Shown here in pieces: positions 2,762 to 64,000 of a stretch of 64,000 nt of DNA. Position 1 is the stretch's first letter. The number at the start of each line of letters is the position of its first letter. The notes below the pieces were generated by a model, which saw only the letters and a program-made list of their open reading frames with translations, was not told the DNA's origin and searched no databases. The stretch comes from a virus (Duplodnaviria > Caudoviricetes): positions 618 through 64,617 of IMG/VR virus record IMGVR_UViG_3300044971_003552; one strand, 5' to 3'. A program made the position numbers and the translations under genes.

Positions 2762-2763
2762 GG

Positions 2764-3757: not shown

Positions 3758-3761
3758 CGTC

Positions 3762-3911: not shown

Positions 3912-3943
3912 TGGTTTGTCCTTGTTTCAGAGAGATAATTCTC

Positions 3944-26625: not shown

Positions 26626-26731
26626 CTATAAAATTAGCCATATTATAACTATTCATTTATCTTGCGGCCGGGTGTATTAATTATTATTATAGCTAATAAT
26701 CGATAACATAGTAATAGGATTATATTTTAAG

Positions 26732-29112: not shown

Positions 29113-29144
29113 AGAATTTTATACTTTAACAATCAACACATAAA

Positions 29145-35600: not shown

Positions 35601-38600
35601 CATACTGGTATGTATGTCAGATATTATCCACACGGATCAGGCTATTCATATGTAGTTCCTCAAACTGGTAAAATTATAGCAAAAACTAGTAGTTCGATTA
35701 CTTTTGATACTCCGTTTACAGGGCTTACAATATTTAATCAGTCTATTAACACTCAAGCAGTATTAGAATTTACACAATATACTAGACATGTTTTTGATTC
35801 GTCTAAAACAGTACATCTTAATATTTCTGGCTATGGACAGCAATCATTAACTAGCTTATCCGGAGCGTATGCGGCATCATACTGTGGACAACCAACATAC
35901 TCTATTAAATTATCTGGAATACCTAATAATATATTTACTGATACTATAGCCACAATAAGGCCAGCCACAACTAATAGTGGAACAGTTTCTTTGGTTTCTC
36001 ATAGAAATATTAGCGGAACATATACTAGAGATGCAACTCAATACAAAAAATATGAAGGTATTTATATAAGACAACCTTCTATTAGTGGAAATAGCAGAAT
36101 TTCTATTTATAACCAAAATTTAGAACCGATAGAGCTACCCTCTGTTCCATTCAACTATAGCTTTGTCTGTGGATACGGAGATGATGATAACGGATCTTTT
36201 GAAATATATAAATCTGGACTATATAGCTATCTAAAATTTAAATCAGTATCAGGCATAGACATTTCTTTATCTTGCGGTCAAGATTTTGATTATGTTTATA
36301 AAGTAGCTAATTTAATGGATGTTTCATATATTAAAAATTATTTATATGGAATAGATTATGATTTACAACAAAGTGGATGCTATTTCTATAGTCAATATCC
36401 AGTAAATAGTGGTGCAGGATATGTGTTTTACCCAGATACTTTAGAAACTTCGGACCTTACAGCTCTGCCACTGGGTTTGCTTCCAGATAAAACATATTTT
36501 CCAGTTAATATAAAATTAGTTAATAGTTCATATATATTTGATTTAAGTAAATCGTCTGGTGGACAACCAATTACTATTATTAATGACAATAATAGAAAGT
36601 CCTCATATAAAATTTTTCCAAGAATACGAGACGCTTATAATAAAGATATATACAATATACGTATTAAAGTTTTTGATATGTCTGGCAGAAATTATGAAAA
36701 ACCATTCTCTATACACATAGATCCTGTTAACGTCAGAACTCACATCAGGAATTCTATACCAGACCAATCGGCAATAATAAATGAACTTTTTACTTATACT
36801 ATACCTAATAATACTTTCCCTAATAAAACAAAAATTTCATCAGTTAGACTTTCTGATGGTAGAGTTTTACCTCAATGGCTTGCCTTTGATCAATCCAAAC
36901 AAGCATTTAGCGGTACTCCTTTAGCTGCAAATTCTGGAACAATAGAATTATTAGTTAAGGCTACGGGGGTTGATCTGATTGTATCTGATGTGTTTAAGTT
37001 GTCTGTCACAGATAGTTATCCATCGATTTCAAACTACATTGTTGATCCAGTATTATCATTTGATATAAAAAACATCTTTCTGTCTAGCATATCTGTTCCT
37101 CAAAATGCTTCTTATGATACACACGTTGGTAAATTATCTGCCGACGGAGGATATAATCCTTATTTAATTTTTAAAACCTCATCTAATAGTTTTAATGGAT
37201 ATTCTCATTTTGGAGGAAATGTTTTGACGGAATGTTCGGCATCTATTAGTCAGTTTTCCACCGTTACATTATCTGGTATTATTCCTTATCTATCTGGGCA
37301 TAACATACTAGTTAGTGGTACGAATAATCAGTCTCAGCAAATAGTAAGTAAGATTGTACCGTCTTCTATTTTTAATATTACTGTGTCTTCTGGTTCTAAC
37401 TTTTTATTATTTAATAATCCAAATAGTAATTATACTGGTATAATTTTTAGTGGTAATAAAATTTTTAGCAATATTCAAAATTGGGACAATAATTACTATG
37501 CTACAAATGTTACAACTACTGGTATTTATCTTAATAGAAATTTTACTAATCTTAATAGCGAATCAACAGGACTAACCTGTTTTACTAGTGGTTATAATAT
37601 ACTGTTAAATTCTAATGTTAATTTTACAGATAATATTATTGGAATTTTTAGTACCCCAATTAATGAATCTGGTTTTTATTATATTGATCAGCTCAAAAAC
37701 TTTACTACAAATTATCAATCAGCTACAAGGTGTCCAGTTACATTATCTAATAATGATAATATTAAGGGTTTTGATACCGAAACAAACGAATATATTATAG
37801 AAAAAGGATATTATTCTACTGGTTTAATTTCATTTTATACAGACGTTGGCTATAGTGATATTTCTATTAGCAGTCCAGAGCATTTAAATTTCGAAAATGA
37901 TGAAAGTAGCGTTTATTTAAGATTCTTATCAAGAAATACTGGGGTTTTACCCACAAGTCAGGGATATTCTAAGATAAGCGGAATAGCTCGGTCATCTTTT
38001 AATGTTAATAATGGATACTTCTTCCCCAACTCCCAACCCTATGCAACAGGATCTGTGCTAGTTAATGTTGACAAAAATCATGGATACAAACTCGCAAACA
38101 ATAATATCATTAATCAGATACCTGTACAATTTTTAGATACTCAGGAAAATAATAGCAATCGTAAACCAAAGAATAATCTTTTTGACATAGATGATGTTGA
38201 AGGAAATACTATATATGTTAAAGATAAAAATAATTATCTATTAAAAGAAATTGGTAAACCAGATTATTTTGAACAAGCGATATCTGGCATCTATACTACT
38301 AACGGTTTTGGCTTTAGTGCTGCTTTTGTACACAATGACTACAAAATTTATGACTTAGATTACGGAGGTTCTCCAATATGGCCTCAAGATAAAATAATAG
38401 ATGTTAATTCCTCTCTTGGGTCATCTAGTTCGAGCTTTGTTTCTAATTCTAGATTACTAGATTTTACTCAGGGATTCTTTTTTAATGGAACAGTAGCTAG
38501 AAGCGGTTCTCACATAGTATACAATGGAACTTTTCCATCTTTAGTATATTCTGGATATGTTATGTCTGTATTTAGTACCGACCCGCTTTGGCCGACAACC

Positions 38601-41600
38601 GGAATAACAGTTGGGTATAACGGATACAATTATTCTCCATTAAGTGTTTCTTTTAATACCGGTATTCCTAAAGTTTTCAATACCCACGGTCTTGGTTCAA
38701 CAGTTAGTCCAATTAATATCCAGTGTACAGGATTGATTAGTCAGTCTACATACGGAGATATGAGAATAGCGTTACTAGGATATGACTATCAAATAGTAAA
38801 TATATCTGGTTCTTATTCTCCTCCGTCTGGTTCAAATTTTGTAATTTCAAAAACGAATCAAGACTCATCTGAAACAACATTATTTTCTAGTTCTAATAAC
38901 TCAAATATTAATATTCAGGTTACTGGTTGGCCCAAAGAAATTATTAGTTTAAAACTTTACAAAAACAATGATCAGCTAAACTTTTCTACCTTAAATATAA
39001 ACATAAATTCTACATTTCATCCAATAAACATTGGTAAGAGACTTGATATACTTAATGCAATAGATAATATTAATACAGACTATGTAGATGCTATGTTTTA
39101 TTTTAAACCTATTATTACTCTTGATCAAAGAGTCTGTTTAAATAATAAATATCGACAACCAGATAATAGAGTATTTTTCAATGGTAATCAAATCACTATT
39201 CACAATCTGTCTACTCCTAGGTCTTATTTGAATACTAATGATCAAATTAAAATTTTAAGCTTGAATAGTGGTATTGATTTTATTGATTCTGCAGTTAGTA
39301 GAAACTGTAGAGTAGTTGGCACAGGAGTAAACAATACAGCTATTTATTGTATTCCTAATAATGGTCCTAAAATAGTGTCTCCTAATTCTATATATAATAG
39401 TGATGATCTATGGAGAAGAAACTCATTAAGATATGCTCATTCTTTCGGAATTAGAGCCAATCAGGAATTACCAAATACAGGAATTATATCATTTGTGGGA
39501 GCTGTTTCTGGATACTTTTCTATTCCGCAAACTAATAATTTGTACCACCATACCTATGGAGGATATACCGCTAATTGGCCAATGGACCCTTACGGAAAGA
39601 GGGTGTCCGCTCCTCTAACAGGCGTCTTTTCTATACAAAGTAACTCTTCTCAATGTGTTTCTGGTACTTTGTGCTTAAGCATTAAGGGGTTCTCTAATAC
39701 AAATTTCAACAGTATCCCGGACTTAACAAATAGATCAGGTATAGGAAAACAACCACATGCTATAGATACGGATGCTGTTAAAGGATATATTAGACCATGG
39801 GGAACAGCAAATAAAAAATACTATTTTGATTTCTCGGACAATGCACCAGAATTGAATGGATTATATTACATTAATGATAAAACAGATCCATACAATATTA
39901 CTATTAATATACCATACAATATTAATTACTTAGGTAGAAGTGGGTTGGTTTATATTATAGACAGCGATTATAATATAAAGTCTAATATAAATCCTAATAT
40001 AGATAACTCTTTTGTCTTATCAGAATCTAATGCTTCGGTTGTTACGGATACGATTCCTCCACAGCCAGTAGCTTTAATTGATTACAAAATCAATTCCTAT
40101 AGTTTAAAATCAAAAAGATGGAAACATCTAGTACATTTTAATAATCCTACCAGCATACCATATAGTGGCTACAATATAACATTTGATTCTTCACAGCAGC
40201 AAGTTTCACAATTACTATATTTGAATCCAGATAAAATAAATATTTTAAATATAGATTATTCTATGGATTATGGCGAATCATATACTCAATTAGATCAAAA
40301 TAAGATAAAAATAAAAACCACAGATGAAAACCCTATTTATCTTCGAATACAGACTAAAGACGGTTCTCAGAAATGGTCACAATCCCTATTGTCTTCTGCT
40401 CCCAAAATTAATATTCATGGACTGAATACATATTCTATAGACACTAATACTATTTCTTATAATAATCAAAATAAAATATGGACAATTACAGCTATTATTG
40501 ATAATATAAAAAATATAACAACTAATAGAGACATTTCTGTTGTCGCGTCGGATGAAACTGGAACAGACAGTACAAACTTGATCATTGATTTGACAAAAAT
40601 TCCAGAAATAGCTGTTCCTAAAGTTACTTATACCTATGTTAATAGTCCTATTCCATGGTCCGTTAATTATGATATAAAATATCTGCCAGATCCATACTTA
40701 ATTGTTATGTCGGGTTATCCTGGTCCTAGTTTTAATATAAATAATGAGACATTCAATAATAGCACAGGTGTAAAAATTCTTTACGGAAATGCCGGATCAG
40801 TTACTGGGGTATTCAATACTACACTATCAGTTAAAGACTATATTACTGGTGAAAATTTATCATCTCAAACTGGAGTTATTAGAGTATTGGCTATGAACCA
40901 GACTAAGCCTGGCTATACCCTGGATCCCATAGGATTGCCTGATGATATATATCTAAATATAGATAACGACAATAGCTCTTCATCATTTTATTTTTATGTG
41001 GATGCTATAAATACATCACAAACTAGTTTGCTAGTAACCTTAACACAAGATGTTGGATATACTAGAAATATTATAACAGAATATAGTAACGTATCAAATA
41101 GATATAAAATCACGGTCAGTTTAGTTGGCTCAGCAGGATATTACTCCAATAAATCTATTACAGTATCATTATTACAACCACAAGTTAACAGTGAGGATGT
41201 AGAGGTCTGGGTTCCATACACCTATACAAAACTAGTTAATATTACTTTGTATAAAACTTTAACTATAGATCGTTATACTCTTCCTCAACCTTTGTCTTTC
41301 GATAAGCAAGATACTTGGTTTTTACAATTCTATTTATTAGGAGGTATTTTTTCTCATAGACCAGATCAAGCCCCGTCAGTTAGATTATCAAACCTACCTA
41401 ATAAAGGAACATATCCTAATGACCCATTAGAGTATAACATTAGATATGAATACGATAATGCAGATAAAAGATGGAAAGTTATTGCTACAGGAAGATCAGA
41501 TAATTTTGCTAGAATGACAGATAGCTTAGGGGTTAAATCTATCAAGATTTTTGCTGAAGACAGTATCAACACTGCTGCCGACACAATTAATCTTACTTTT

Positions 41601-44600
41601 ACTCAAAATAGATATTTAACAAACTTACAACCAGTTACATATTCTATTCCTAATGAATTTTACCAAACGACTTTTGATGTCAGACAAGCTTCCGCCAACA
41701 ACAGTATTATGATTAGTCTTCCTGCTAACCTAAGAGAAGATACCATTGATTTAAGTCTGGTTAACCAACAATACGACCCGGATCTACTGCTACATCAGTT
41801 TTCATACTCTGGTTCTCCGATTTATGATAAGTGGGATACTTCTATAAGTTTTGGTAATATTAATACTTCCTTAAATGATAATCAATTATCATCTATAACT
41901 GTGAGATGCAAGGGTATATCATCTGATAAAATATATGCCATAGGTAAACTTAGTTTGATGGAATTAGACAGTTTAACTTTACCAGGATTACCCATAAAGA
42001 TCACAGGAGTAGCTCGACCCAACTATTCGGCAAAGGAAGGGTCTCCGTGGAGAATTACTTTTAAGACATTGCACGGTCTAGAAAATCCTAATTTTCCTCC
42101 TACAATTCTATTGTCTGGTTTGCCAACAGTATGTTCCGGATATTATCCTTCTTTACCTCTAGAACAACAAAATGGATGCTTAGAATCTAGAAATTGGAGT
42201 CCGTCAGATAAATCATGGAATTTTGCCTTTACCGGTTTTCCATTGTGTGGTATCGATGGAGTGAAACCATTTTCAATAACAGCCATAGACACAGATACTA
42301 TTCAAAATATTTCCTTAAGTTTTGATACTATCAATGCTGCTATTGATTACACATCATTAGATGAGGAAGGATTTGTGCATCCTGTCCCTCAGATAGTGCC
42401 TGTGGGGCAGGTTGCGGATCCTATACAATTGTCTCCCCGTTGCTCAGAACCTCCCATAAATATTTCCTATCGTTTTGGACCTCAGAACAGAGCAACATGT
42501 CCTATACCAACAGGCATTACTGGCTGGATAGTATCAGCTTCCGGAGGAAATAATCTATTACCCTCGGGGCTATCCTATACTATCAGTTTTCCTGGAGGTA
42601 GTCCAAAGAGACCATGGAATAATCTAGGCAGCGGCACTTTAACGATTACTGGAGATCCTTTATTTTTTGCTAGCGGTACAGAGTATGCTGAAAAGCTTAT
42701 CTTGACTGTTTTTGACGCTAGAGGCAAGTCGATACAAAAAATTATTAAGTTTACAGATATATCGTCTCCTAATCCACCTTCTCCTATTGATCTTCCTATT
42801 TATTTTGATAGCGAAAAACCTATTTACACTCGTAGACTACCAGGACAAAATAATATAACAAACCCTAGTGGAACAACACCAATAGATTGGCAAAGTTATC
42901 CAGATTTACCATTGGTGTATTGGCCAGCGGCGAATGCTAATAATTTAAAATGTGACAGTATATTACCACACAACCAGTGTCTCGTAACGTCTTTTGCTTA
43001 TAGTGGGGCTAATTTTCAAACTTTTGACTTCAGAGTATTCATAAAACCAGAAAGACCTATTCTTAGTGCTGGAAGTACAGTGTATGTAGAATTTGATAAT
43101 AATCCCGGACATAACCGGAATAATAGATATCAATTATCCAGTCAGGGTAATTTTCCTAATATACAATATTTTATAACAGCAGATGGTCATGATTTAGGAA
43201 CGGGCATAGGCAGACTGGTTCAGGAAAGAACCCCAAGATTTAATACTCAAAATATCCAAAAGTTTTTAGGCAATACAGACATAACAACAACAAGATCATT
43301 GCTAGGTTGTGGCAGCTTTGCTTCAAAGTCCAGTGTGCAGGAGGCTGGTTTTGGTCTCTTTGGAAGGATGTATCCAAGTATACAGGCTACAATTCCTAGC
43401 GGAGAGGTATTTTCTTCACAGATAGAAGGAAATCCACCTCCTGTTCCTTTAGCAAATCTTTCTTTGTCTACATTAGATAATATGTATACAAGTGGAGTTC
43501 CACAGATATCAACTGTTAAAACTTTTGATTGCTGGCAAACGGGTTACTTAAGAATAAGCGGAATACTTTTACCCTCTCCGTCAGTTGAACTAACAGACCC
43601 TGCTCCTGCCGCTGAGGCACCATTTGCATATAATGGACAACAATATTTTATTGGTAGTCGTTGCGTATATGGTAGTAATCCAGATGATAGAAATTTAATA
43701 GGAAATAAAAGAGATGTTAATATAGACTATAAACTTAAAAATATACTGTCTAATTCTACTTATGCTCAGGGATCAGTAGGACCAAATCAAGCAATATCAT
43801 TTAATCATACCGAAAACACAGGAACAGTATTTTCTTTATTTATTAATAATACTCCATCTATTTTTCCAACATATAGATCAAATGCTATAAGATATGCTGA
43901 AAATGAGTACTTTTGGGTTCACAAGGGTGGAACAAAAAATCAAAGTATCACACAAAATAGTTTTCCTCCGGTTGTCATTGGTGGACTAAAAGATATTCAT
44001 GCTCTAAGTGGGACAAGTATTTCTGGTTACAGTATTACAGCAGTAGGAGGATATATTCCTTTTAATGAGTATTCAACTCCAATTCCTTATTATAGGTTGC
44101 CCGATGGATCAAACTGGTCAACATCTAACTATCCTCCATTTATTACAGGTGTTATACAGAGTAGAGTTGCTGTTGAAAACTCAATAACTTACAGCCACTC
44201 TGGCTCGTCCAATTCTCAGTATCAATTCATACAGTCTAGCTTATTAAGTAATCCATATAATATAGAAGTGGGAGATACTATCTATATTAGCTTCCCAGGC
44301 ACAGACATTCCAGCACAAACTATTGCTCTGGGAGTGAACAACATAAGCAACAATACATTATTAATCCCGTACTCTAGAGTTGATAAACCAGCTATCCTCA
44401 ATGGAGCTGCGAAATTTTCATTTTTATCTAGCGTAACCGGTATAGAATCAAGCAGTATTTTTATTAAACACAAAAATTTACCATTAGTTACGGGAGATAG
44501 TATTGATGTTGTTTGGAGTTCGGGCAGTTCTTTTAATAGTATTGCTCCTTTAACAAATTCTATGACAGTAAGTTCTTTTAATAGTACATCTGCTGTTGTA

Positions 44601-45197
44601 TCTTATAATGGTGTCGGATCTTCTTTTTCCAGTGGATTATCTATTGGGCATTCAGTAGATATATATAAAAATTATCATAATGAAATTAATATTGGATCAT
44701 TAACCTTTTCTAAAGAAGGCTATTGGTTATTTAGCTTATCAGGTATTCCAACTAATGTTTATAAAGACTATAGATACAAGATAGTTACTGTAGAAAATAG
44801 CGGTATGCCAGTATTTTCTGGTACAGATTTGGTTGCCAAGAAGTACGTTTCTTTACATAATACCTATATTAGCAAACCTATTAAAATATTACTCAATAAT
44901 AATTATTCTATTCCAAACAACAACGGGGTATGGACATTGTCTTTTAGTGTAGATGGAGGAAGTAGACCAATTAAAAATAACACCCCAGAAATTATGATTA
45001 ACAATAGTATTTGCAATTTTAATAGAACACTAAATTCTCTTACTATGCAAGACTCTTACGATGTGGAAAATGATAGATGGAATATTACTATCGGAAATAA
45101 TAATAATTATGATTGGAGATATGATGGCTCATTTGAATTGAAAGTTTTTGACGATACCGGATTTGATACTAAAACTATTCTTTTTAGTAATGGATAA
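32628..45197 (+). CDS. giant 4189-aa virion fibre/adhesin protein
   Basis: Single ORF; N-terminal collagen GXY, LPINSGGT repeats, DADLLDG, YadA-like stretch, cadherin/He_PIG-like LPQWLAFD..FSGTP. Confidence 0.75.
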   Translation: MSIVRVEEDIQPLKYLVVTQQRDPESVITTNVVISDTRNNRINLVSIEKGLQGDIGLVGPKGDPGKDGVIFDVLPINSGGTNNTIFSSGHVIYYDGSKLSSSNYTIQDILNNAGNSSNLTGIIAESGLYVNLVNNNARLGVKTGGGLTINEQNTIVVDDTIVRKVELNLGSIEGVVPIEKGGTNNQLFNSNRLLYYDGFKIASFPLATGRILLSGTTIDIVAGSGLVGGGLTSLPSGSVVLNIGGSSDILVETNSISLSNTGIAGTYNKITTDEKGRVVSGSNLSASDIISILNYTPWHIGNDGENSGLDADLLDGQQGSYYLDLSNSTGILSADSLPVQSAPGLYTKVQVNNKGIVINGQDINYGDIVNALGYRPVSATGDIIYGPLTINGNTTLDGNDLVVKDNLPLLGTNSPFILPNEPRGFSFMYGGLTPQTGILAYYPGERELRLITNIGATGIVDAGSGDNFNNEVDGGDANSVYVIGNITGDMNIVLLRSVADSLYVSRFADQTISGNKTFADPLAVRGQISVIPNINQSTPPFNVGANTRMVENLNVDLLHGKNLDYYNDASNMTGLFNYEKVQFNSLEGTIGFIPRFDNRTNNPSRTISDSVIQQTGQIVRVNNNFNFSVGTSNTGSFDANRSALIGQNNRIIGDNSLAVGSNNLVNANNSIALNSKSQALTDNSIAAGNHGYTWSENQVSFGSFRELNNISTAQGQHSTITLGLSGVQTDGAWVNMSPSINIPKNKTLSYTLEVLMNKAAGTGAALFTYESGIIKNSTFRNPNNPSFLTNITSILKDATKREIYNDSQRRRYYYHFNLDNNNFIQNLDVTAPDIKTLDIKPYNTESLYKYIPQYIESYGTYEKTNDGELVLNIPKPITYGWFYQNSGSPDIIVKSYFHGMTTGSVSRLNFTSATKHTPFSKQYQVSSIISDTLFSVKETSWSGRLTNDELILDPQVVSDIDSKNSIITNAGFLYTNSPDIYNVPTNITNVLHTGMYVRYYPHGSGYSYVVPQTGKIIAKTSSSITFDTPFTGLTIFNQSINTQAVLEFTQYTRHVFDSSKTVHLNISGYGQQSLTSLSGAYAASYCGQPTYSIKLSGIPNNIFTDTIATIRPATTNSGTVSLVSHRNISGTYTRDATQYKKYEGIYIRQPSISGNSRISIYNQNLEPIELPSVPFNYSFVCGYGDDDNGSFEIYKSGLYSYLKFKSVSGIDISLSCGQDFDYVYKVANLMDVSYIKNYLYGIDYDLQQSGCYFYSQYPVNSGAGYVFYPDTLETSDLTALPLGLLPDKTYFPVNIKLVNSSYIFDLSKSSGGQPITIINDNNRKSSYKIFPRIRDAYNKDIYNIRIKVFDMSGRNYEKPFSIHIDPVNVRTHIRNSIPDQSAIINELFTYTIPNNTFPNKTKISSVRLSDGRVLPQWLAFDQSKQAFSGTPLAANSGTIELLVKATGVDLIVSDVFKLSVTDSYPSISNYIVDPVLSFDIKNIFLSSISVPQNASYDTHVGKLSADGGYNPYLIFKTSSNSFNGYSHFGGNVLTECSASISQFSTVTLSGIIPYLSGHNILVSGTNNQSQQIVSKIVPSSIFNITVSSGSNFLLFNNPNSNYTGIIFSGNKIFSNIQNWDNNYYATNVTTTGIYLNRNFTNLNSESTGLTCFTSGYNILLNSNVNFTDNIIGIFSTPINESGFYYIDQLKNFTTNYQSATRCPVTLSNNDNIKGFDTETNEYIIEKGYYSTGLISFYTDVGYSDISISSPEHLNFENDESSVYLRFLSRNTGVLPTSQGYSKISGIARSSFNVNNGYFFPNSQPYATGSVLVNVDKNHGYKLANNNIINQIPVQFLDTQENNSNRKPKNNLFDIDDVEGNTIYVKDKNNYLLKEIGKPDYFEQAISGIYTTNGFGFSAAFVHNDYKIYDLDYGGSPIWPQDKIIDVNSSLGSSSSSFVSNSRLLDFTQGFFFNGTVARSGSHIVYNGTFPSLVYSGYVMSVFSTDPLWPTTGITVGYNGYNYSPLSVSFNTGIPKVFNTHGLGSTVSPINIQCTGLISQSTYGDMRIALLGYDYQIVNISGSYSPPSGSNFVISKTNQDSSETTLFSSSNNSNINIQVTGWPKEIISLKLYKNNDQLNFSTLNININSTFHPINIGKRLDILNAIDNINTDYVDAMFYFKPIITLDQRVCLNNKYRQPDNRVFFNGNQITIHNLSTPRSYLNTNDQIKILSLNSGIDFIDSAVSRNCRVVGTGVNNTAIYCIPNNGPKIVSPNSIYNSDDLWRRNSLRYAHSFGIRANQELPNTGIISFVGAVSGYFSIPQTNNLYHHTYGGYTANWPMDPYGKRVSAPLTGVFSIQSNSSQCVSGTLCLSIKGFSNTNFNSIPDLTNRSGIGKQPHAIDTDAVKGYIRPWGTANKKYYFDFSDNAPELNGLYYINDKTDPYNITINIPYNINYLGRSGLVYIIDSDYNIKSNINPNIDNSFVLSESNASVVTDTIPPQPVALIDYKINSYSLKSKRWKHLVHFNNPTSIPYSGYNITFDSSQQQVSQLLYLNPDKINILNIDYSMDYGESYTQLDQNKIKIKTTDENPIYLRIQTKDGSQKWSQSLLSSAPKINIHGLNTYSIDTNTISYNNQNKIWTITAIIDNIKNITTNRDISVVASDETGTDSTNLIIDLTKIPEIAVPKVTYTYVNSPIPWSVNYDIKYLPDPYLIVMSGYPGPSFNINNETFNNSTGVKILYGNAGSVTGVFNTTLSVKDYITGENLSSQTGVIRVLAMNQTKPGYTLDPIGLPDDIYLNIDNDNSSSSFYFYVDAINTSQTSLLVTLTQDVGYTRNIITEYSNVSNRYKITVSLVGSAGYYSNKSITVSLLQPQVNSEDVEVWVPYTYTKLVNITLYKTLTIDRYTLPQPLSFDKQDTWFLQFYLLGGIFSHRPDQAPSVRLSNLPNKGTYPNDPLEYNIRYEYDNADKRWKVIATGRSDNFARMTDSLGVKSIKIFAEDSINTAADTINLTFTQNRYLTNLQPVTYSIPNEFYQTTFDVRQASANNSIMISLPANLREDTIDLSLVNQQYDPDLLLHQFSYSGSPIYDKWDTSISFGNINTSLNDNQLSSITVRCKGISSDKIYAIGKLSLMELDSLTLPGLPIKITGVARPNYSAKEGSPWRITFKTLHGLENPNFPPTILLSGLPTVCSGYYPSLPLEQQNGCLESRNWSPSDKSWNFAFTGFPLCGIDGVKPFSITAIDTDTIQNISLSFDTINAAIDYTSLDEEGFVHPVPQIVPVGQVADPIQLSPRCSEPPINISYRFGPQNRATCPIPTGITGWIVSASGGNNLLPSGLSYTISFPGGSPKRPWNNLGSGTLTITGDPLFFASGTEYAEKLILTVFDARGKSIQKIIKFTDISSPNPPSPIDLPIYFDSEKPIYTRRLPGQNNITNPSGTTPIDWQSYPDLPLVYWPAANANNLKCDSILPHNQCLVTSFAYSGANFQTFDFRVFIKPERPILSAGSTVYVEFDNNPGHNRNNRYQLSSQGNFPNIQYFITADGHDLGTGIGRLVQERTPRFNTQNIQKFLGNTDITTTRSLLGCGSFASKSSVQEAGFGLFGRMYPSIQATIPSGEVFSSQIEGNPPPVPLANLSLSTLDNMYTSGVPQISTVKTFDCWQTGYLRISGILLPSPSVELTDPAPAAEAPFAYNGQQYFIGSRCVYGSNPDDRNLIGNKRDVNIDYKLKNILSNSTYAQGSVGPNQAISFNHTENTGTVFSLFINNTPSIFPTYRSNAIRYAENEYFWVHKGGTKNQSITQNSFPPVVIGGLKDIHALSGTSISGYSITAVGGYIPFNEYSTPIPYYRLPDGSNWSTSNYPPFITGVIQSRVAVENSITYSHSGSSNSQYQFIQSSLLSNPYNIEVGDTIYISFPGTDIPAQTIALGVNNISNNTLLIPYSRVDKPAILNGAAKFSFLSSVTGIESSSIFIKHKNLPLVTGDSIDVVWSSGSSFNSIAPLTNSMTVSSFNSTSAVVSYNGVGSSFSSGLSIGHSVDIYKNYHNEINIGSLTFSKEGYWLFSLSGIPTNVYKDYRYKIVTVENSGMPVFSGTDLVAKKYVSLHNTYISKPIKILLNNNYSIPNNNGVWTLSFSVDGGSRPIKNNTPEIMINNSICNFNRTLNSLTMQDSYDVENDRWNITIGNNNNYDWRYDGSFELKVFDDTGFDTKTILFSNG

Positions 45198-56341: not shown

Positions 56342-57232
56342 ATGAAAACAGAAAATTTTAGTGTTGTTGTAGATGGCGTTGAAAAGCATTATGCTGTTCG
56401 TTCACCCTCATTAAATGATCAAAGGGAAGCCCAGAAAGCATATAATCAAGCTTTCACTGATGCTATTAAAAGCAAGAGTATAGTGAGAGCTAAGATGGAT
56501 GACCTTCTAGAAGAACAGGGTTTATGGAATAGCGAAAAACAGGCCAAGTTCACCACTCTGCAACAAGAATTGCTAGATGGAGAAAAGCGTCTGGCTAAGG
56601 GTGGTTTCAGCTTAAATGAGGCTAAAAAGCTAGCTCTAGAAATGAAAAATGTTAGAGCAGAAATTAGAGACCTTATTAGTGTTCGCACAAGTCTAGATAA
56701 CCATAGTGCAGAAGGTCAAGCAGATAACGCCAGATTTAACTACCTAGTATCAGCTTGTGTGGTGTATAAAGATAGTAATGATCTATACTTTAAAAATTTG
56801 GAAGACTATCTTAATAAGGCTGACGACCCAGTAGCTCTATTAGGTGCTCAAAAATTGGCTAACATGATTTATGGACTGGATAATAACTTTGAAAAAGGCT
56901 TACCAGAAAATAAGTTTTTACAGAAGTATAAGTTTGTTGATGAAAAACTTCGCTTGATTGATAAGAAGGGTCGTTTGGTGGACGCCGACGGCAGACTTAT
57001 TGACGAGAGAGGACGATACATCGACGAACAAGGTAGTTATGTTGATAAGTATGGCAATAGGGTAGATGCTGATGGAGATTATGTTGTAGAATCAGAACCG
57101 TTCCTTGATGACGAAGGTAAACCAGTTGTTTTGGATGAAGAAAAACCAGTTACGGAAGAAAAGAAAACTGATGAAACTAAAACACCAGAAACTTCACCGC
57201 AACCAACAACAGAGACTCCCAAGACAGAGTAA
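56342..57232 (+). CDS. putative tail assembly chaperone with short DxxGR repeats
   Basis: Directly upstream of TMP; LIDKKGRLVDADGRLIDERGRYIDEQG repeats. Confidence 0.55.
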   Translation: MKTENFSVVVDGVEKHYAVRSPSLNDQREAQKAYNQAFTDAIKSKSIVRAKMDDLLEEQGLWNSEKQAKFTTLQQELLDGEKRLAKGGFSLNEAKKLALEMKNVRAEIRDLISVRTSLDNHSAEGQADNARFNYLVSACVVYKDSNDLYFKNLEDYLNKADDPVALLGAQKLANMIYGLDNNFEKGLPENKFLQKYKFVDEKLRLIDKKGRLVDADGRLIDERGRYIDEQGSYVDKYGNRVDADGDYVVESEPFLDDEGKPVVLDEEKPVTEEKKTDETKTPETSPQPTTETPKTE

Positions 57233-57262
57233 TTTTCTATATAATTTGAGTTTCACAATCTT

Positions 57263-57303
57263 GAGCACCATGCGACATAGCGTTTGCATGGTGTTCTTTT
57301 TTT
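57263..57303 (+). terminator. rho-independent terminator just upstream of the TMP gene
   Basis: GAGCACCATGCGA..TTGCATGGTGTTC stem followed by T7. Confidence 0.75.
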
Positions 57304-57315
57304 AGGATATAAAAT

Positions 57316-60300
57316 ATGAGCAAAGGATTTAATCTAACAGCAGAGCTGAATCTACGTGGTCCCTCTAATATTAGGACAGTAGTAGCAGATATTCGTAGAC
57401 AAGTAGGATCAGTATCCGTAAACATTACTCCAACAGTCAATAGACAATCTATTCGTACTATTGCTAGTACAATTAGGAGTCAATTATCTAATATAACTTC
57501 TGATGTTAAAATAAGAGCTAATACAGCATCATTAAGAAGTATTGGTGCTGATATAAGACGACAATTAGGAGGGGTTACAGCTAATGTTAATGTAAGAGCC
57601 AACCAATCTTCAATACGAGCAGTAGCTTCTGATATCAGACGTCAATTAGGATCAATCAATACCAATGTTAACGTTAGATTTAATACTGCCGCAGTTACAA
57701 CTTATGGTAATAACTTAAGAGCTTTAAATAATAACCTTAATCAGATAACAGCATCAGCAACTAATGCCACAGCAGCAATTAATGCTCTTACAGCAGCTAT
57801 GAGAGGAGCATCAACAGCTGCAGCCAGTATTAATAATGCTTCTGTGAATGTTGGCAATCTTGGAAGAGCCGCTGGTGGGGCTAGGAATAGTATTGCTCTA
57901 GCTAGCAATGAGATGATAGAATTTGGTCGTCAGTCAGGATTGGCTTTTAGAAGATTTTCAGCTATTACAACTGTTACTGGTATTGTTTACGGACTAACTA
58001 ATGCTATTAGGCAAGGGGTTGCATCCTTTATAGACTTTGATTTACAGATGACAAGAATTGCTCAGGTTACTGGAGATGCAAAAAATGAGTTGGGAGCTGT
58101 TGCCAACACTATTACTAATTTATCTACTACATTAGGTGCTAGTTCGGCTGAACTAACCAAAACTACGGTAACATTAGCTCAGGCTGGTTTAACAGCAAAA
58201 GATACTGCAACGGCACTTAGGGCTCTAGCTCTTAGCGCATTGGCTCCGTCTTTTGACGATATGAATCAGACGGTAGAAGGTTCTATTGCTCTTATGAGAC
58301 AGTTTGGTATTGGAGCAAATCAATTAGAGATGGCTCTGGGCAGCGTCAACGCAGTATCTGCTAAATTTGCTGTAGAAGCTAGTGATATTATTACGGCTAT
58401 TCAGCGTACTGGTGGTGTGTTTGCTTCTGCCAGCAAAGGAGTTAGTACTGGTACAGATGCTCTTAACGAGTTTATTGCTGTATTTACTAGTATACGAGCT
58501 ACTACTCGCGAAAGCGCCGAAACTATCGCTACCGGCCTAAGAACTATTTTTACTCGTGTTCAACGAGCAGAGACTATTGAATCTCTCAAAGAATTTGGCG
58601 TTACTCTTACTGATCTTGAGGGTAAATTCGTAGGTCCCTATGTTGCTGTTCAGCGTTTAAGTGAGGGTTTATCAAGACTAGATCCACGAGATCTTAAATT
58701 CTCACAAATTGTTGAGGAGCTTGGAGGATTCAGACAGATTGGTAAAGTACTCCCTCTTATCCAACAGTTCGCTACTGCGCAAGATGCTCTAAGCGTTGCT
58801 CAACAAGGTCAAGGATCGTTAGCGGCAGATGCTGCTAAAGGACAACTAGCTTTAGCCGTTCAAATTCAAAAGGTTCGTGAAGAATTTCTTGCTCTTATTC
58901 GTAGCATTGGTGAAACTAGTAGTTTTCAAAATATGGTTAAGGTAGGTTTAGACTTAGCTAGCGCTCTTATTAAGGTTGCTGATGCTACTAAAGGTATTAT
59001 TCCTTTATTGACTATGTTTGCAGCTTTTAAAGGCATTAGTACTGCTACTCAATATATTAGTGGTTTTGGTCAGGGTATACGAGGTCGTGCAGCAAGAGGA
59101 TCGGCAGAAGGCGGAAGAATTTATGCTTTTGCTAGCGGCGGTTTGGTTCCAGGTAGCGGAGATAGAGATACCGTATCAGCTCGCTTAACTCCAGGTGAGT
59201 TTGTAATGAGAAAGAGCGCTGTAAAGAGTATTGGAGCTGGTAATCTCTATTCTTTAAATAGAAATAGTGGAGGCATTATTCCTAGTTCCTCAGATATACA
59301 AAGATTTAGCCAAAGAAATCCTACCAATGAATCAGGAATAGTAAAAAGCGTAAAATCTAAAAATAAGAAAACACCACCAGATAATGCTCTTGAATCATGG
59401 ACAAATAATCCTACTCCCCAAAACTTAGCTTTGGCTCATTTTGGCTCAGAAATGCCAATGACACCGACGCATTTCAGACAATATATAAATAGACCGACAG
59501 CAGTAAGGGGTATTCCTACAAAATCTAATCAGCTTGCTCCTAGTCTGAAGATAGCACAAGGAAATATCTCTAGTTTGAGCAGCGCTAGTAGCTCGCAGAT
59601 ACAATATATTATCGATACTCTTGGGCTTAATCAAAAGCCACCAATTTTACTAAGTATTCCAAGATTAACAAATAATGCAATGAGGGATAGCGGACAAGGA
59701 GCGTTTAGTGCTGCTTTGGCTAGCTGGATCAAAGCAAATCCAGCACTTCTGGTATCTGATGGTAAAAGAAGAGGTGCTGATAGAATAAAGTCTACAGACC
59801 TAGTAAATAGTCCACAGAATTTTGCTAACACTATCTCTGCAAAAATACCAAAGCAAACTGTAATACACGACTCTGATCTTTCATCTTTGACCACCGATAT
59901 ATGGTCTCTACTCTCAGAAGAGAAGAAACAATTTCTTTCTGATAGAGCTGATATTATATGGAAAAGATTAGTAAAAGATAAGAGAGCAGGCGTTCAACAA
60001 CGACAAGAAGGAGCATATAAAGTAGGTTCAATAGACCTGATAAATAGACGATCTATGGGTGGATCTATTCAGAGATTTCCTGTTGGTGGAGAAGTAAAAC
60101 CAGTTATTCGCACTGTTGGAGTTATTGATTCTGATGACTGGAAAGAAGACCCGGTTGTCGCTGCTCAAATGAAAATGATGGGTATTACTAAGCTCGACGA
60201 ATATAAAGTTCATATGTCTAATTTAGTAGCAGAAAAAAGAAAATCTGGAGGTATTCGAAGACTAAGAACAGTTTTTGGTGCTGCAGCAAGTGGTAAGACT

Positions 60301-63300
60301 ACAGCGGCTTACGGTGGTGCAAGATCTCAAGAAGCAGATAACGCCAGGCTACGTAAAACAACTAGACGAGCCATACGAGTTCCCAGTGACTTAGAAGGAT
60401 TAGATGAAGTCATTGATACAACTTCAGTACTGGGTCCTCGAAATACTACCTCTTTAAGAGCATCTGATAGAATACGAAATCTTTCTAGCAGATCTAAAGC
60501 TAGTCAAGAAGCAGTTGTGTCCAGAAGAAAAGACAGAGACAGACTATCAGAATCTGGAGTACCCGATCCATCTGGACGTAATTATGGATTATTTAATCGT
60601 AGACCCGGAGCTACGGACGGTGCTCCAGTTGATACCGGAATAGACGAAGCATGGCTAGCGGCTTCCGAAGTTTCTGGTGTTGATCCCAAAAAAGTGATAA
60701 CTACTGATGTTGCAACCGGAAGAAGAATTGGTGCTCCAACCGTAAGAACCCCGGAAAAAACAACAGTCTTTTCTGGTAATGTTGGGCCAATGACATCTGG
60801 TCATGTTGAGGCGATTATGAAAGGATCGAAGAAAGCTAAGACTCGTCCAGAAGACACCGTAATATATGTTGCTGGAAATACTCCCATAGATCCATTTACA
60901 CGAGATGATCAGAGAGAAAGAACAGCTATTTTCCCTCAAAAATCATCTAGCGGACCATCAAGAGTAGGAATGGCTCAAGCGGTACTTGGATCGAAAGGAT
61001 TTAATATCTCTGCTGCTCCAAAAGGAATTGCTCCTGGGGCTTTTCCCAAAGCTTTCAAAATTGAAGGACAAGAAGATTCTTATATTGTCCCAAACAGTAC
61101 TGGTAATTTTGCCATAATAGGAAATGATAAGCCAGACTCTACCATAGAGAGAAATCGTTCACAAGGTTACGAACCAATAAAAATAGCCAGAAATGGAATT
61201 AGTGGCACTGATGCTAGAGCGGCCATTATGAGTAATGATCTTGAAGCCATGGAAAGGCTTTTGACTCCAGAAGGAATAGCTTATTTAAAGCCTCATATGG
61301 CTACATTACAGAAAAGACCAAAACTATTAGATAGTATTCTTGCTAGAATTCAAGAAAATGCCCAAAAAGGAAAAGGAAGGGCAGGAAGATATTTCTCAAG
61401 CCTTGCTGAACTATCAACACTTCCAGCTCGGGTTACTGCAAAAACACCAACTGATGTTGCAACAAGAGTGAAAAATCTAAGAGAACAGAGAGATATAGAC
61501 GAAGCGGTCTTAGGACGAAGAGCAGCCAGAATGCTTCCTAGACTTGAAGGACTGGGAAGGTCTTCTGGTGGGACTATTCAAAAATTCTTGGATGGTGGAT
61601 GGGTTCAAAGAATGCAAACAAAACCAGACAGTATCTTACGAGATGAAATGTCGTTATTATCATCTAGTATTATGATGATGGATGTTGGAGAAAGAAAAGG
61701 ATCTGCTAGCACATTTAATACCGGAGCAATCTATGAGGATGTTGGCAAACGAGAAGCTAAAGAAAGACTCGCTGCCATACAAAAATTCTTACAAGAAAGA
61801 ACTACAAAAACAGTTGCTAAACTAAAAGAAAAAAAAGGAGCTGGACTAAAATCCACACCCCAATATGACGCTCAAGAGCAATTAGATGCTATCATCTATT
61901 ATCAGGGCGGTTCTGGGCCACTCATTAAGGCTATGGCTGCTGGTAAAAAAACTTTCTCGGATAGAGAGAGTAAATATCAAACGGCTGATGTTGTTGGTAG
62001 ACTAAATGCTGCTACTCAATTTAAAGCTCCTAAAAAACTTTATAGCGGATTAGGTCCCAGCCAACTAAGAGAAATTATTAAAGACACTGGAGTTTCTATT
62101 GATGAACTATTGGACAGAAGCGGTGTTGCTTTTACAGCGATGTCTGGTAAAAATGTAGATTTCCCAACCTTCGTTTCTACAACAGACAAGAAACAGCAGG
62201 CTTTGCGATTTGTTGGCAATCCAGGAGCTATGTTGAACATAGACTCAGCCAATGCCAAAACTAAGGTTATAGATCTACTAAAAGCTAAAGGTAAAACAGA
62301 TACGTCTTCTTCAAAACCACAAAGTAGTAGAAGACTTAGTGGTCTTAATAAAATAGATCCTAAAAAATTAGACGTATATGATAGTGAGAGAGAGTTTATT
62401 TTACCTCCGGGTGTAAAATTCAAACTTAATAAAGTTAGTGGTTTTGTCGGTGAAGATTTTAAAGAAACCATCAAACCCGGCAAAAAGAAGAAATTTGCAG
62501 ATTCTTATGAAGACTATCTTAATGATCAGTTCTTTGAAAAAACTAAATTAGATATTCAGGCTCAAATGCTCAACTCAGGAGGCCGAGTTCAACGACTTAT
62601 GGCTGGTGGAGTAGCAGAAGAATCCGATGTAACCACGTCCACGAAAGCTTCAGTCGGAGAAATTATTAAATTATTAGGATTACAAAGAGCAGCTGCTGCT
62701 GGAGGCATTAGTTCAACAGATGTATATACAACATTAAATAAACGAACACCAACTCCACAACAAGCAGCAAGTAAAGCTGCTATTCTAGCAGAATTTACCA
62801 AACAAAAAACAGCACTAGCAAGTAAAGCGGCAGCTAGCCAAACAAGAAAACAAAATAAGGCAACGGCTAAAGGACTAGTATTTGGTGCCGCTGGATTATT
62901 TGGAAGTGCCTTTGCAACCCAACCAGTAATTCAAACTATACAAGACAGTAGATTAAAAGACCCAAATAAACAACATACTGTCAGTATTTATAGTGGAGTA
63001 TATAAAAATCAAAAAAGAGCAAGTAGCATAGATGCTAGTTTTGATAAGGCTGTTGACACAATACCAATGCAACAAGCTCAAAAGGAAAAAAGAGCGGAAA
63101 TGGTTGCTCAAAAGAAAAAAGCTGCAACCATATTGGGAGGACTTGAGTCTGGCAGAGAATTGAACTTAGACTTTGACAGAACATTAGCCTTTGGTGCTGA
63201 CAAAATTTTAGCAGATCCAAAACAACCAAGATTTAGTGAATTTTCTGATACTACCAAAGTAACCGAGGCTCTGAGCAAAGCTAAACTAAGCGTACTAGGT

Positions 63301-64000
63301 CGTCGGTTAGCTTCTTTAGTGGCTAAAAAACCAGATTTATTAAAAAACATACGAGTCATAACAGCTAGACCAAAAGTAACGCTTCCTTTAATTCAAACAT
63401 GGTTAAGTAGCAAAGGCTTACCAATACCAGATAGTCAGTTTAAGGGGCTGGGCGGACCAACCATTTCAGGATCAGATATAGCTAAGCTAAAAGCTGCAGA
63501 ATTAACTCCAGGATCTATTTTTGTTGACGATGACAAAAGAAACATAGCTGCCGCTAGAAAAAGAGCTGATGAAGGAATAGATGTTTATAGATATAGAGGA
63601 GTTAAGAAATTAAAAGAAAATACACAATCATTAGAAAATATAGAGTCACTTAAAGGTAATTTATTAGAAGCATTTATAAGAAGATTAGGAGCAGTAGGAT
63701 CGCCAAAGGGTAATGGATTTGATTTTATGAATGGGTTGGGTAAAGTCTCACAAAAATTCGACCCCAAACTACCCCCTAAGATACCAACTGACGTTAAGAG
63801 AACATTAGCTGGTCCATCAACCATAAAAGATAATATTGTTACTTATCTTAAAAATGTTAAAGGCTTTAATAATGGTGGAGCTGTTCAAAGCTTTATGGCC
63901 GGTGGAGCAGCTAAAAAAATAGCTTTCAAGGTTGGCGATAAAGTACGCTCTCTCGAAGAGTGGGGATTAGATCGCGAAGATGATCCCGCTTATACTGTGC
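57316..64000 (+). CDS. tape measure protein with C-terminal multi-enzyme cargo domains (partial, at least 2228 aa, runs off window)
   Basis: ATG 57316 after AGGA RBS; frame open to the window end (absent from ORF track because no stop); TMP core FIDFDLQMTRIAQVTG...LAQAG; FASGGLVPGSGDRDTVSARLTPGEFVM motif. Confidence 0.88.
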   Translation, partial: MSKGFNLTAELNLRGPSNIRTVVADIRRQVGSVSVNITPTVNRQSIRTIASTIRSQLSNITSDVKIRANTASLRSIGADIRRQLGGVTANVNVRANQSSIRAVASDIRRQLGSINTNVNVRFNTAAVTTYGNNLRALNNNLNQITASATNATAAINALTAAMRGASTAAASINNASVNVGNLGRAAGGARNSIALASNEMIEFGRQSGLAFRRFSAITTVTGIVYGLTNAIRQGVASFIDFDLQMTRIAQVTGDAKNELGAVANTITNLSTTLGASSAELTKTTVTLAQAGLTAKDTATALRALALSALAPSFDDMNQTVEGSIALMRQFGIGANQLEMALGSVNAVSAKFAVEASDIITAIQRTGGVFASASKGVSTGTDALNEFIAVFTSIRATTRESAETIATGLRTIFTRVQRAETIESLKEFGVTLTDLEGKFVGPYVAVQRLSEGLSRLDPRDLKFSQIVEELGGFRQIGKVLPLIQQFATAQDALSVAQQGQGSLAADAAKGQLALAVQIQKVREEFLALIRSIGETSSFQNMVKVGLDLASALIKVADATKGIIPLLTMFAAFKGISTATQYISGFGQGIRGRAARGSAEGGRIYAFASGGLVPGSGDRDTVSARLTPGEFVMRKSAVKSIGAGNLYSLNRNSGGIIPSSSDIQRFSQRNPTNESGIVKSVKSKNKKTPPDNALESWTNNPTPQNLALAHFGSEMPMTPTHFRQYINRPTAVRGIPTKSNQLAPSLKIAQGNISSLSSASSSQIQYIIDTLGLNQKPPILLSIPRLTNNAMRDSGQGAFSAALASWIKANPALLVSDGKRRGADRIKSTDLVNSPQNFANTISAKIPKQTVIHDSDLSSLTTDIWSLLSEEKKQFLSDRADIIWKRLVKDKRAGVQQRQEGAYKVGSIDLINRRSMGGSIQRFPVGGEVKPVIRTVGVIDSDDWKEDPVVAAQMKMMGITKLDEYKVHMSNLVAEKRKSGGIRRLRTVFGAAASGKTTAAYGGARSQEADNARLRKTTRRAIRVPSDLEGLDEVIDTTSVLGPRNTTSLRASDRIRNLSSRSKASQEAVVSRRKDRDRLSESGVPDPSGRNYGLFNRRPGATDGAPVDTGIDEAWLAASEVSGVDPKKVITTDVATGRRIGAPTVRTPEKTTVFSGNVGPMTSGHVEAIMKGSKKAKTRPEDTVIYVAGNTPIDPFTRDDQRERTAIFPQKSSSGPSRVGMAQAVLGSKGFNISAAPKGIAPGAFPKAFKIEGQEDSYIVPNSTGNFAIIGNDKPDSTIERNRSQGYEPIKIARNGISGTDARAAIMSNDLEAMERLLTPEGIAYLKPHMATLQKRPKLLDSILARIQENAQKGKGRAGRYFSSLAELSTLPARVTAKTPTDVATRVKNLREQRDIDEAVLGRRAARMLPRLEGLGRSSGGTIQKFLDGGWVQRMQTKPDSILRDEMSLLSSSIMMMDVGERKGSASTFNTGAIYEDVGKREAKERLAAIQKFLQERTTKTVAKLKEKKGAGLKSTPQYDAQEQLDAIIYYQGGSGPLIKAMAAGKKTFSDRESKYQTADVVGRLNAATQFKAPKKLYSGLGPSQLREIIKDTGVSIDELLDRSGVAFTAMSGKNVDFPTFVSTTDKKQQALRFVGNPGAMLNIDSANAKTKVIDLLKAKGKTDTSSSKPQSSRRLSGLNKIDPKKLDVYDSEREFILPPGVKFKLNKVSGFVGEDFKETIKPGKKKKFADSYEDYLNDQFFEKTKLDIQAQMLNSGGRVQRLMAGGVAEESDVTTSTKASVGEIIKLLGLQRAAAAGGISSTDVYTTLNKRTPTPQQAASKAAILAEFTKQKTALASKAAASQTRKQNKATAKGLVFGAAGLFGSAFATQPVIQTIQDSRLKDPNKQHTVSIYSGVYKNQKRASSIDASFDKAVDTIPMQQAQKEKRAEMVAQKKKAATILGGLESGRELNLDFDRTLAFGADKILADPKQPRFSEFSDTTKVTEALSKAKLSVLGRRLASLVAKKPDLLKNIRVITARPKVTLPLIQTWLSSKGLPIPDSQFKGLGGPTISGSDIAKLKAAELTPGSIFVDDDKRNIAAARKRADEGIDVYRYRGVKKLKENTQSLENIESLKGNLLEAFIRRLGAVGSPKGNGFDFMNGLGKVSQKFDPKLPPKIPTDVKRTLAGPSTIKDNIVTYLKNVKGFNNGGAVQSFMAGGAAKKIAFKVGDKVRSLEEWGLDREDDPAYTV

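Follow-up and report, generated by a model that had tools for sequence, protein, structure and literature searches.

This analysis concerns the last gene of a 64,000-nucleotide stretch of viral DNA (hereafter the window), which corresponds to positions 618 to 64,617 of the IMG/VR record IMGVR_UViG_3300044971_003552 (Duplodnaviria; Caudoviricetes). The gene encodes a giant tape measure protein (TMP), of which the window holds the first 2,228 codons (57316..63999, + strand), from an ATG start to a 3' end that is open where the contig ends. The end of the window is also the end of the 64,617-base viral record, whose completeness was put at 43% by CheckV. A preliminary description of this DNA had proposed a single open reading frame (ORF) from 57316 in which a tape-measure core is fused to a chain of enzyme-like modules, and this architecture was confirmed. 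The ORF listing gives 57316..63999 (+) with 2,228 amino acids (aa), the translation contains zero stops, also between core and modules, the core scores above curated cut-offs, and the modules carry enzyme motifs.

The first 592 residues (57316..59091, +) form a TP901-type tape-measure core. PF10145 matches aa 265-469 (nt 58108-58722) with E 2e-21 and 77.2 bits against a cut-off of 33.2, the TIGR01760 score of the core is 82.9 bits against a cut-off of 28.8, and at least six PHROG TMP families match as well, with phrog_28 at E 3e-28. The core is 86% identical over 590 aa to that of a related giant, G001, and its best match in an isolate phage is YomI of SPbeta, with 23% identity. ORFs upstream of the gene match tail-fibre and baseplate-wedge PHROGs, and in G001 the giant gene is followed by a 1,462-aa ORF whose start overlaps it. 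With its core above the curated cut-offs and its gene within a tail module, the protein belongs to the TP901 family, in agreement with its earlier designation as a tape measure.

Behind the core, the protein is divided by 11-aa linkers of the form GG-x-[IV]-Q-x-F-x-x-GG, one of which closes each module. Exactly five GG-x7-GG strings occur, at aa 599, 915, 1418, 1755 and 2187 (starting at nt 59110, 60058, 61567, 62578 and 63874); their residues are as first quoted, and the protein contains no others. Shuffling the protein 2,000 times gave 0.11 such strings on average and 3 at most, so that 0 of 2,000 reached five. The pattern places linker 2 (GGSIQRFPVGG) at 60058..60090, linker 3 (GGTIQKFLDGG) at 61567..61599, linker 4 (GGRVQRLMAGG) at 62578..62610 and linker 5 (GGAVQSFMAGG), which is repeated identically after every copy of module 5, at 63874..63906, all on the + strand.

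The short linker pattern is the trailing edge of a longer element of about 75 aa, termed here the junction unit, which recurs six to nine times per protein in complete relatives. It consists of a leading GG-x-[IV]-Y-A, a near-invariant core DTVPAMLTPGEFVVN, the string L-P-L-L-x-x-I-N and a trailing [FY]-[SN]-x-GG-x-V-x-[YF]-x-x-x-GG. Alignment of the units places the only full one of the window at 59092..59334 (+), where linker 1 (59110-59142) is the leading edge and is followed by the DTVSARLTPGEFV core and an LN..GG tail. For the GG linker of the preliminary description, the role as a boundary stands, while the linker itself is actually the trailing edge of a generic tape-measure unit of some 75 aa. 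In the complete relatives the unit separates modules of about 1,000 aa in the rest of the protein, and one copy precedes the C-terminal 140 aa or so. The junction core also matches annotated TMP genes in 117 records of isolate phages from unrelated hosts (Gordonia, Mycobacterium, Ralstonia, Brevundimonas and Nodularia phages), once or twice each; in Gordonia phage TinaLin, the unit lies at about aa 801-869 of 1,241. No Pfam or NCBIfam model matches the unit in scans of G001.

A profile made from 33 junction units, searched against 1.84 billion cluster representatives, matched 26,594 proteins with E ≤ 0.001, of which 1,459 reach E ≤ 1e-30. The 150 best matches, which served as a census of giants, are 1,401-7,872 aa long and carry 3-11 units each. 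The number of units is correlated with length (r = 0.72, one unit per about 760 residues), and the last unit ends a median of 140 aa before the C-terminus.

Of module 2 (aa 926-1417), an alignment of 18 copies with identities down to 28% was made. Its domain A (60112..60738, +) is P-loop kinase-like, with the Walker A motif GAAASGKT at 60277-60300. Domain B (60739..61320, +) is by motifs and model a HIGH-signature adenylyltransferase-like domain of the NMNAT/NadD/PPAT type, and a C-terminal helical extension (61321..61566, +) comprises the helices at module residues 393-488 of the model. The Walker A Lys, the string G-x3-P-x-T-x-GH and the string IS-x-T-x-x-R are invariant in all 18 copies. 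At the level of residues these are G229, P233, T235 and H238, with the HIGH motif reading T-S-G-H, and I370, S371, T373 and R376, where IS-x-T-x-x-R was aligned to 3gmi at E 0.0017. The AlphaFold2 model of the module has a predicted local distance difference test (pLDDT) value of 88.4 and a predicted template modelling score of 0.84. Domain B superposes on NadD (4rpi; Z 14.2, root-mean-square deviation (rmsd) 2.8 Å over 155 aa), PPAT (4nah; Z 13.7) and NMNAT (1f9a; Z 13.2), followed by NadR (Z 11.1) and TmcAL (Z 10.8), with a Foldseek probability of 1.00. Because the Z-scores of NadD and PPAT are tied, no substrate was assigned to domain B. The Thr in T-x-GH is presumably more PPAT-like than NMNAT-like. 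Domain A, as part of the whole-module model, superposes best on a zeta toxin-type kinase (6epg; Z 8.1, rmsd 3.4 Å, 148 aa), a middling and commonly reached score. Among curated families only PF16581 was matched, below its cut-off (16.9 against 26.7 bits), with nothing in NCBIfam, and no stand-alone homologue was found at E ≤ 0.001 among the 269-858-aa proteins of a large collection. The Walker A motif at 60277 and the nucleotidyltransferase signature at 60769-61218 (T-x-GH and ISGT-x-x-R), both pointed out beforehand, are therefore upheld by the invariant motifs and by a confident model, of which domain B superposes on NadD. Refilling of the NAD pool was considered as the role of module 2 and rejected, since about three copies per virion are by our own estimate too few for bulk synthesis.

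Module 4 (aa 1766-2186; 62611..63873, +) consists of an N-terminal helical/beta part and the core of a cap-less HAD phosphatase (63148-63606). In its alignment of 15 copies, with identities down to 37%, the strings DFD-x-TL and T-A-R, a Lys and DD are invariant throughout; the motif residues are D187, D189 and T191, the Thr of T-A-R (with A252 and R253), K294, and D306 and D307. The model of the module (pLDDT 85.7) shows a cap-less HAD core that is closest to the 3'-phosphatase of T4 Pnkp (5uj0; Z 11.8, rmsd 3.0 Å over 126 aa) and to Pnkp1 (Z 11.1), and then to class C acid phosphatases (Z about 10), while the HAD matches found by Foldseek have a probability of 1.00. In contrast to T4 Pnkp, no Pnkp kinase domain is fused to this core. 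When the profile of module 4 was compared with PDB sequences only chance-level matches resulted, and a fold search was needed. The HAD motifs read earlier at 63169-63534, from DFDRT through VDDD, are thus backed by conservation, model and superposition.

Module 3 (aa 1429-1754; 61600..62577, +) resembles ADP-ribosyltransferases (ARTs). It contains STT and E-R-E motifs, and a Ser at the Arg position (LYSG at 62038). The module scores below the cut-off of PF03496 (E 0.039, 13.7 against 23.4 bits) and matches Alt-like PHROGs at E 0.002-0.02. It is homologous to two copies in G001, and the G001 protein does pass PF03496 (47.3 against 23.4 bits) and matches an ART PHROG at E 6.7e-9. A profile of four module 3 sequences aligns to CdtA and iota Ia chains at STS and ExE with E 0.003; E263 and E265, which the window reads as E-R-E, are invariant in that alignment. 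An STS-type motif is present in all 28 TMP-borne ART domains (FLSTS in 15, close variants in 13), and the window has F-V-S-T-T. As the module is below the Pfam cut-off and lacks the canonical Arg, it is called only ART-like. The ART motifs assigned to 62038-62400 in the preliminary description accordingly stand for STT and E-R-E, with profile support, and fall for the Arg. Three of the four enzyme folds named there hold, the P-loop plus HIGH and the HAD folds by models and motifs and the ART fold by profiles and a homologous copy.

The remainder of module 1 (59335..60057, +) is shared only with the relative G002 (54% over 313 aa); it has no Pfam or NCBIfam match, and its residues 60-303 gave no usable match in the ESM Atlas. 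After linker 5, the window ends in a 31-aa stub of module 5 (63907..63999, +), the start of a tandem unit of about 63 aa, which was recognized by identity to P0010 and by read depth. P0010 is a 5'-truncated protein of 5,082 aa in which a module of about 63 aa is repeated in tandem between identical linkers. The stub is 100% identical to aa 34-64 of P0010, which begins inside a previous copy, and the overlap between the two proteins is identical in 42 of 42 aa. Read depth over 63786-64000 is raised about 2.2-fold, 3-fold, 4.4-fold and 5.3-fold in four runs. The tandem repeat of module 5 broke the assembly, which explains the end of the contig, and its duplication is a local example of a linker-bounded rearrangement; since the excess of depth differs among runs, the copy number may vary between populations. 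Runs X8, X9 and X12 have loose ends at 63911, which translate to the sequence of P0010 after its second linker. Since the 42-aa identical overlap and these loose ends continue the frame, the full length of the protein is probably about 7,250 aa, of which the window would hold roughly the first 30%. P0010 itself shares 79% identity with G001 across about 2,400 aa.

The gene is not a product of the assembly. Contigs from four runs outside those flagged as a possible source span every junction (core/module 1, modules 1/2, 2/3 and 3/4, and module 4/linker 5) with at least 99% identity, and because they bridge all of them a chimera, which had been raised as a danger, is excluded. At least half of the sampled words of the stretch were found in 20 lake-water metagenome runs, and scanning viral contigs yielded 22 related loci. 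Five genomes of 161-230 kb, all 100% complete according to CheckV and two of them with terminal repeats, have the homologous gene as one uninterrupted frame, which encodes proteins of 7,795 (G001), 7,737, 6,900, 5,863 and 5,682 aa. The phage of the window is a freshwater phage, with a genome estimated at 150-230 kb. Its tail is likely non-contractile; the sheath family PF04984 had no match in five of five records, which hints at such a tail. An NCBI entry for one giant is binned with a metagenome-assembled genome of Sphingobacteriia, which hints at the host.

Comparison of the relatives shows that a cargo bay lies behind the core and the first junction unit, and that module sets and orders vary within it. 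G001 has the core closest to that of the window (86%), yet it lacks modules 1 and 2. Conversely, modules 2 and 4 of the window are 82-88% identical to those of G002 and G004, whose cores are only 63-64% identical, and in G002 the order of modules 4 and 3 is reversed. Homology to module 2 starts 0-4 aa after the end of the upstream linker in 14 of 18 loci, and for module 4 the distance is at most 14 aa in 12 of 14; boundaries missed by the linker pattern carry degenerate linkers. The prediction that the linkers coincide with domain boundaries in homologues, and that TMPs of related phages differ in their cargo, was thus borne out both for the joints and for the presence and order of modules. 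Two degenerate junction cores (...D.VPAL...GE.YV... and ...SDSIGP...) were also seen in G004 at aa ~1,815-1,916 (L007 ~15,440-15,745), after the HAD module and before the next linker, so that junction cores can occur inside the bay too.

The same picture emerged from the census. The TMP core was detected in 129 of the 150 giants and is always N-terminal. Of the 150, 25 contain module 2, 50 contain module 4 and 13 contain module 3, in six different orders, and 85 carry none of the three. Exactly one junction unit precedes module 2 in 21 of 25, module 4 in 48 of 56 and module 3 in 13 of 15 domain hits. Of the 13 giants with module 3, 10 also have module 4, compared with 40 of the 137 without module 3 (Fisher p = 0.001, uncorrected for relatedness). 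In the 80 giants that could be analysed, the bay, measured from the first to the second junction unit, ranges from 58 to 2,393 aa. Single-linkage clustering of its contents collapsed to one family, as long segments hold several modules, and was replaced by pairwise maps of high-scoring segment pairs with stricter clustering; the 117 bay segments then fell into 72 families, 54 of them singletons. Domain databases recognize little of this. Pfam found PF10145 in 11 of 11 giants, SHOCT in one and nothing else, and in the whole of G001 it found only the core, the ART and EF-hands. The EF-hands lie in a C-terminal module of G001, at aa ~5,650-5,735 (L005 ~26,900-27,200; PF13405 E 6.7e-6, PF00036 E 7.1e-6). 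NCBIfam had no match in the C-terminal 4,794 aa of that protein, and two C-terminal modules of G002, about 1,000 aa each, matched no PDB sequence below E 0.2.

The preliminary description had also suggested that the linker is a recombination joint for swapping cargo. Boundaries and cargo exchange do coincide; a recombination signal at the level of DNA, however, was not supported. Within one genome the 15-aa junction cores are identical as protein and only about 80% identical as DNA, with nearly all synonymous sites varying. Because the cores are identical as protein and scrambled at synonymous sites, each copy appears to be kept by selection on the peptide, and gene conversion or a DNA-level signal does not fit this pattern. 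A contig of run X12 matches the window downstream of 59122, inside linker 1, while its 155 unlike letters upstream encode a G002-type ...EGGPI lead-in; it may represent a co-occurring strain with a breakpoint inside junction unit 1, or simply a relative in which this patch is conserved. As an explanation of the linkers, a protease site of the double-glycine-leader or LxGG type was considered and set aside, since the hydrophobic spacing does not match the leader consensus.

The reading favoured here, to which a probability of roughly 0.6 is given, is that a TMP of about 7,250 aa carries a bay of independently folding enzyme modules that would be injected into the host ahead of the DNA. The invariance of the catalytic signatures in 18 of 18 and 15 of 15 divergent copies argues for active enzymes under selection. 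A precedent exists for much of the proposed route. In T5 the TMP, pb2, sits in the tube as a metastable trimer and is cleaved after R1127 during morphogenesis, between its structural part and an enzymatic domain that is retained in the tail, is expelled at infection and may need refolding, according to the parts of the T5 account that treat pb2 (PMC10038345). The TMP of JBD30 is described as having a C-terminal anchor in the baseplate core and as forming a channel upon expulsion (PMC11445458). By analogy, a trimer of the giant TMP would be threaded through the tail tube in a non-native state, as in T5 pb2, its C-terminus would anchor in the tail tip, and it would be expelled ahead of the DNA at infection. 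Once inside, the ATP-dependent and NAD-type modules would regain their folds and be active in the cytoplasm of the host from the first moments of infection, whether still tethered or released by cleavage at or close to the junction units. Selection would let pass only those exchanges at the joints that keep the frame, and the joints would in this way become the mosaic boundaries that are observed. Since the kinase and adenylyltransferase need ATP and the ART needs NAD, the modules could work only in a cytoplasm, and that of the next host is the somewhat favoured site of action.

More detailed versions of the reading are less secure. Cleavage at or near the joints is a tentative proposal, held with less than even confidence. 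Rather unlikely as a whole is the most far-reaching version, in which the giants would be an undescribed large class of tape-measure polyproteins and the tail lumen a programmable injection channel. A bay of cytoplasm-type enzymes that can be swapped for one another (enzymes for the synthesis of nucleotide cofactors, ART-like enzymes, phosphatases of RNA ends or nucleotides and many further folds) would then enter before any expression of phage genes and pre-empt abortive-infection defences, and the junction unit, with its core DTVPAMLTPGEFVVN, would act as a processing or release signal that turns one precursor of 5,700-7,900 aa into a dozen proteins.

Several points weigh against delivery of active enzymes. 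The presence of the modules in the virion, their ejection, their arrival in the cytoplasm, their cleavage and any anti-defence role are steps that we infer. The activity of module 3 is uncertain, judging from its residues: the canonical Arg of the [YF]-R-G strand is replaced by Ser, Thr or Ala in 27 of the 28 TMP-borne copies, in contrast to T4 Alt and other virion-packaged ARTs, and Arg is seen, by eye, only in P0124. In JBD30, the tube density ascribed to the TMP trimer is given as about 20 Å wide (PMC11445458); because folded modules of 35-55 kDa exceed such a lumen density, the modules could be stored only in a non-native state. By our own arithmetic, the volume of a 7,250-aa trimer is about 2,900 nm3, which would fill a 4-nm lumen completely over at least about 230 nm. 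Since about three copies per virion would, again by our own estimate, be too slow for bulk synthesis of a metabolite, the adenylyltransferase may have a different target. No peptidase was found with Pfam and PHROGs in the window protein, in the 7,795 aa of G001 or in 11 further giants, although divergent domains could escape such scans. Finally, because single junction units occur in ordinary TMPs free of cargo, the primary role of the unit may be assembly and not release.

The last point leads to the strongest rival, which concerns cleavage only and with which delivery would still be possible. The junction units and linkers may be assembly nodes that bind the tube lumen, the tail assembly chaperone or each other, keep a long and partly globular TMP in register and serve as obligatory spacers, which alone would make them coincide with the module boundaries. 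Such an assembly or anchoring role, which is compatible with a role in cleavage, is a serious possibility that falls somewhat short of even odds. At about 75 aa the unit is far longer than a protease site; it is present once or twice in ordinary TMPs (the 117 records above), its number scales with protein length, every copy is under purifying selection at the peptide level, and the Pfam and PHROG scans of giants revealed no protease domain. On the other hand, 11-aa linkers without the core of the unit still bound every module of the bay, and there are documented cases of TMP cleavage beside an enzymatic domain, in T5 and, by citation in the T5 account (PMC10038345), in lambda. A predicted complex of three copies of the junction unit scored 0.13 against a mark of 0.42, which is evidence in neither direction.

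It is improbable, though worth weighing, that the modules act in the producing cell, where the giant precursor would be made late and the modules would be clipped off or active before or during tail assembly, so that the virion receives only the core and the C-terminal parts. Such clipping was long assumed for the C-terminal part of lambda gpH. Processing of TMPs in morphogenesis is established for T5 and lambda in the same account (PMC10038345), the folded modules are too large for a 20-Å lumen density, and the few copies injected seem, by our estimate, insufficient for the synthesis of metabolites. However, there is no obvious gain in fusing late enzymes to a structural protein of about three copies, many lineages have kept the fusion as a stop-free frame of 5,682-7,872 codons, the bay is always within the TMP, between the core and the C-terminal anchor, and the clipped enzymatic fragment of T5 is described as staying in the tail (PMC10038345).

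Still less probable, to the point of being barely credible, is a pure length ruler, in which the phages would have extremely long tails and the enzyme-like modules would be filler with vestigial folds. TMP length does set the length of siphophage tails, as stated in PMC5099701, and Gordonia phages with 9-kb TMP genes and 500-nm tails have been described (PMC4919401), but filler would hardly retain the same catalytic residues in all of 18 and 15 divergent copies, the models show compact globular enzymes and not coiled coils, and close relatives differ in module content by hundreds to thousands of residues, with bays of 58-2,393 aa. An artefact, be it a chimeric assembly or a chance read-through of several genes, can practically be dismissed, for although the contig terminates inside the gene and the gene holds repeats, contigs of four independent runs bridge all junctions, 20 runs contain at least half of the sampled words, the same architecture recurs in 22 loci and five complete genomes, and the core is N-terminal in 129 of the best 150 giants.

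Injection of the modules as part of the TMP may be compared with known systems. T4 Alt is an ART that is delivered as a protein at infection, and it travels in the phage head; module 3 of the window matches Alt-like PHROGs. T5 pb2 and SPbeta YomI are, like the giants, TMPs with an enzymatic domain, in their case a lytic one. However, TMPs of the T5 pb2 type carry one cell-wall-degrading domain for the periplasm or wall, whereas the giants carry several cytoplasm-type enzymes in a variable bay, are five to seven times longer and contain the junction unit 3-11 times. The polyvalent proteins of Iyer et al. 2017 are reportedly packaged in the head or delivered by conjugation. Like the giants, polyvalent proteins combine many effector domains, including ARTs, in one polypeptide, with strong mosaicism and the prediction that they travel together with the DNA and that their activities are separated once deployed, as set out in the relevant parts of PMC5512222. 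They differ in that they typically carry a processing peptidase, MPTase, as stated in the same source (PMC5512222), of which none was detected in the giant TMPs, and in that the carrier is here a TMP and the joints are a conserved TMP-specific peptide; the word 'tape' is absent from that paper (PMC5512222). The Sle1-type effectors of actinobacterial contractile injection systems also use a tape-measure-related platform with a swappable domain that is packaged in the tube and ejected, as outlined in PMC13277306 and PMC11126660. However, they are cellular systems with one functional domain and a partner, Sle2, whereas the present gene is a phage tail gene in genomes of 160-230 kb with a cargo of several modules and repeated junctions.

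The nearest published concepts, as far as the cited parts of the literature go, are the effectors of contractile injection systems (Sle1 and its relatives) and TMP-borne lysins. No description of TMP-borne arrays of cytoplasm-type enzymes was found in the literature searched, in which papers on tape measures, ADP-ribosyltransferases and phages were judged by their titles and the beginnings of their abstracts. An overview of jumbo phages mentions the TMP once, in a general description (PMC7824862). Isolate phages match the window protein only in the core (at most 18% of the query) or in the junction core (2%). The giants are of the same kind as enzyme-bearing TMPs and polyvalent proteins, but their carrier, joint and scale are distinct.

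If the modules are delivered, the TMP would be a modular carrier of pre-made effectors besides being a ruler and a channel former, and it would provide, beside head-packaged proteins, a second route for enzymes that enter the cell at time zero. In annotation pipelines the giants appear as 'TP901 family phage tail tape measure protein'. Because Pfam detects only the core in giants and pipelines report a tape measure protein, a large reservoir of cargo (72 segment families in 80 proteins) is hidden. Bounded as it is by linkers, the bay seems a natural place to insert cargo for engineered protein delivery by phage tails or injection systems, and the junction unit, a strongly selected peptide shared with ordinary TMPs, poses a question for tail biology.

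Some further features of the window were noted. Just upstream of the tape-measure gene, a 66-aa ORF (57105-57305, +) overlaps, in a different frame, the end of a 296-aa ORF (56342-57232, +). Neither has a PHROG match or a convincing Pfam match. The layout recalls a frameshifted pair of tail assembly chaperones, for which the offset would require a +1 or -2 shift. G+C is 0.44-0.50 at 1-4000 and 26001-30000 of the window, against 0.30-0.40 elsewhere. A second giant ORF in the tail region (32628-45197, +) encodes 4,189 aa, of which the sole Pfam match is an Ig-like domain, He_PIG (E 1.2e-8), and is probably a giant fibre or adhesin.

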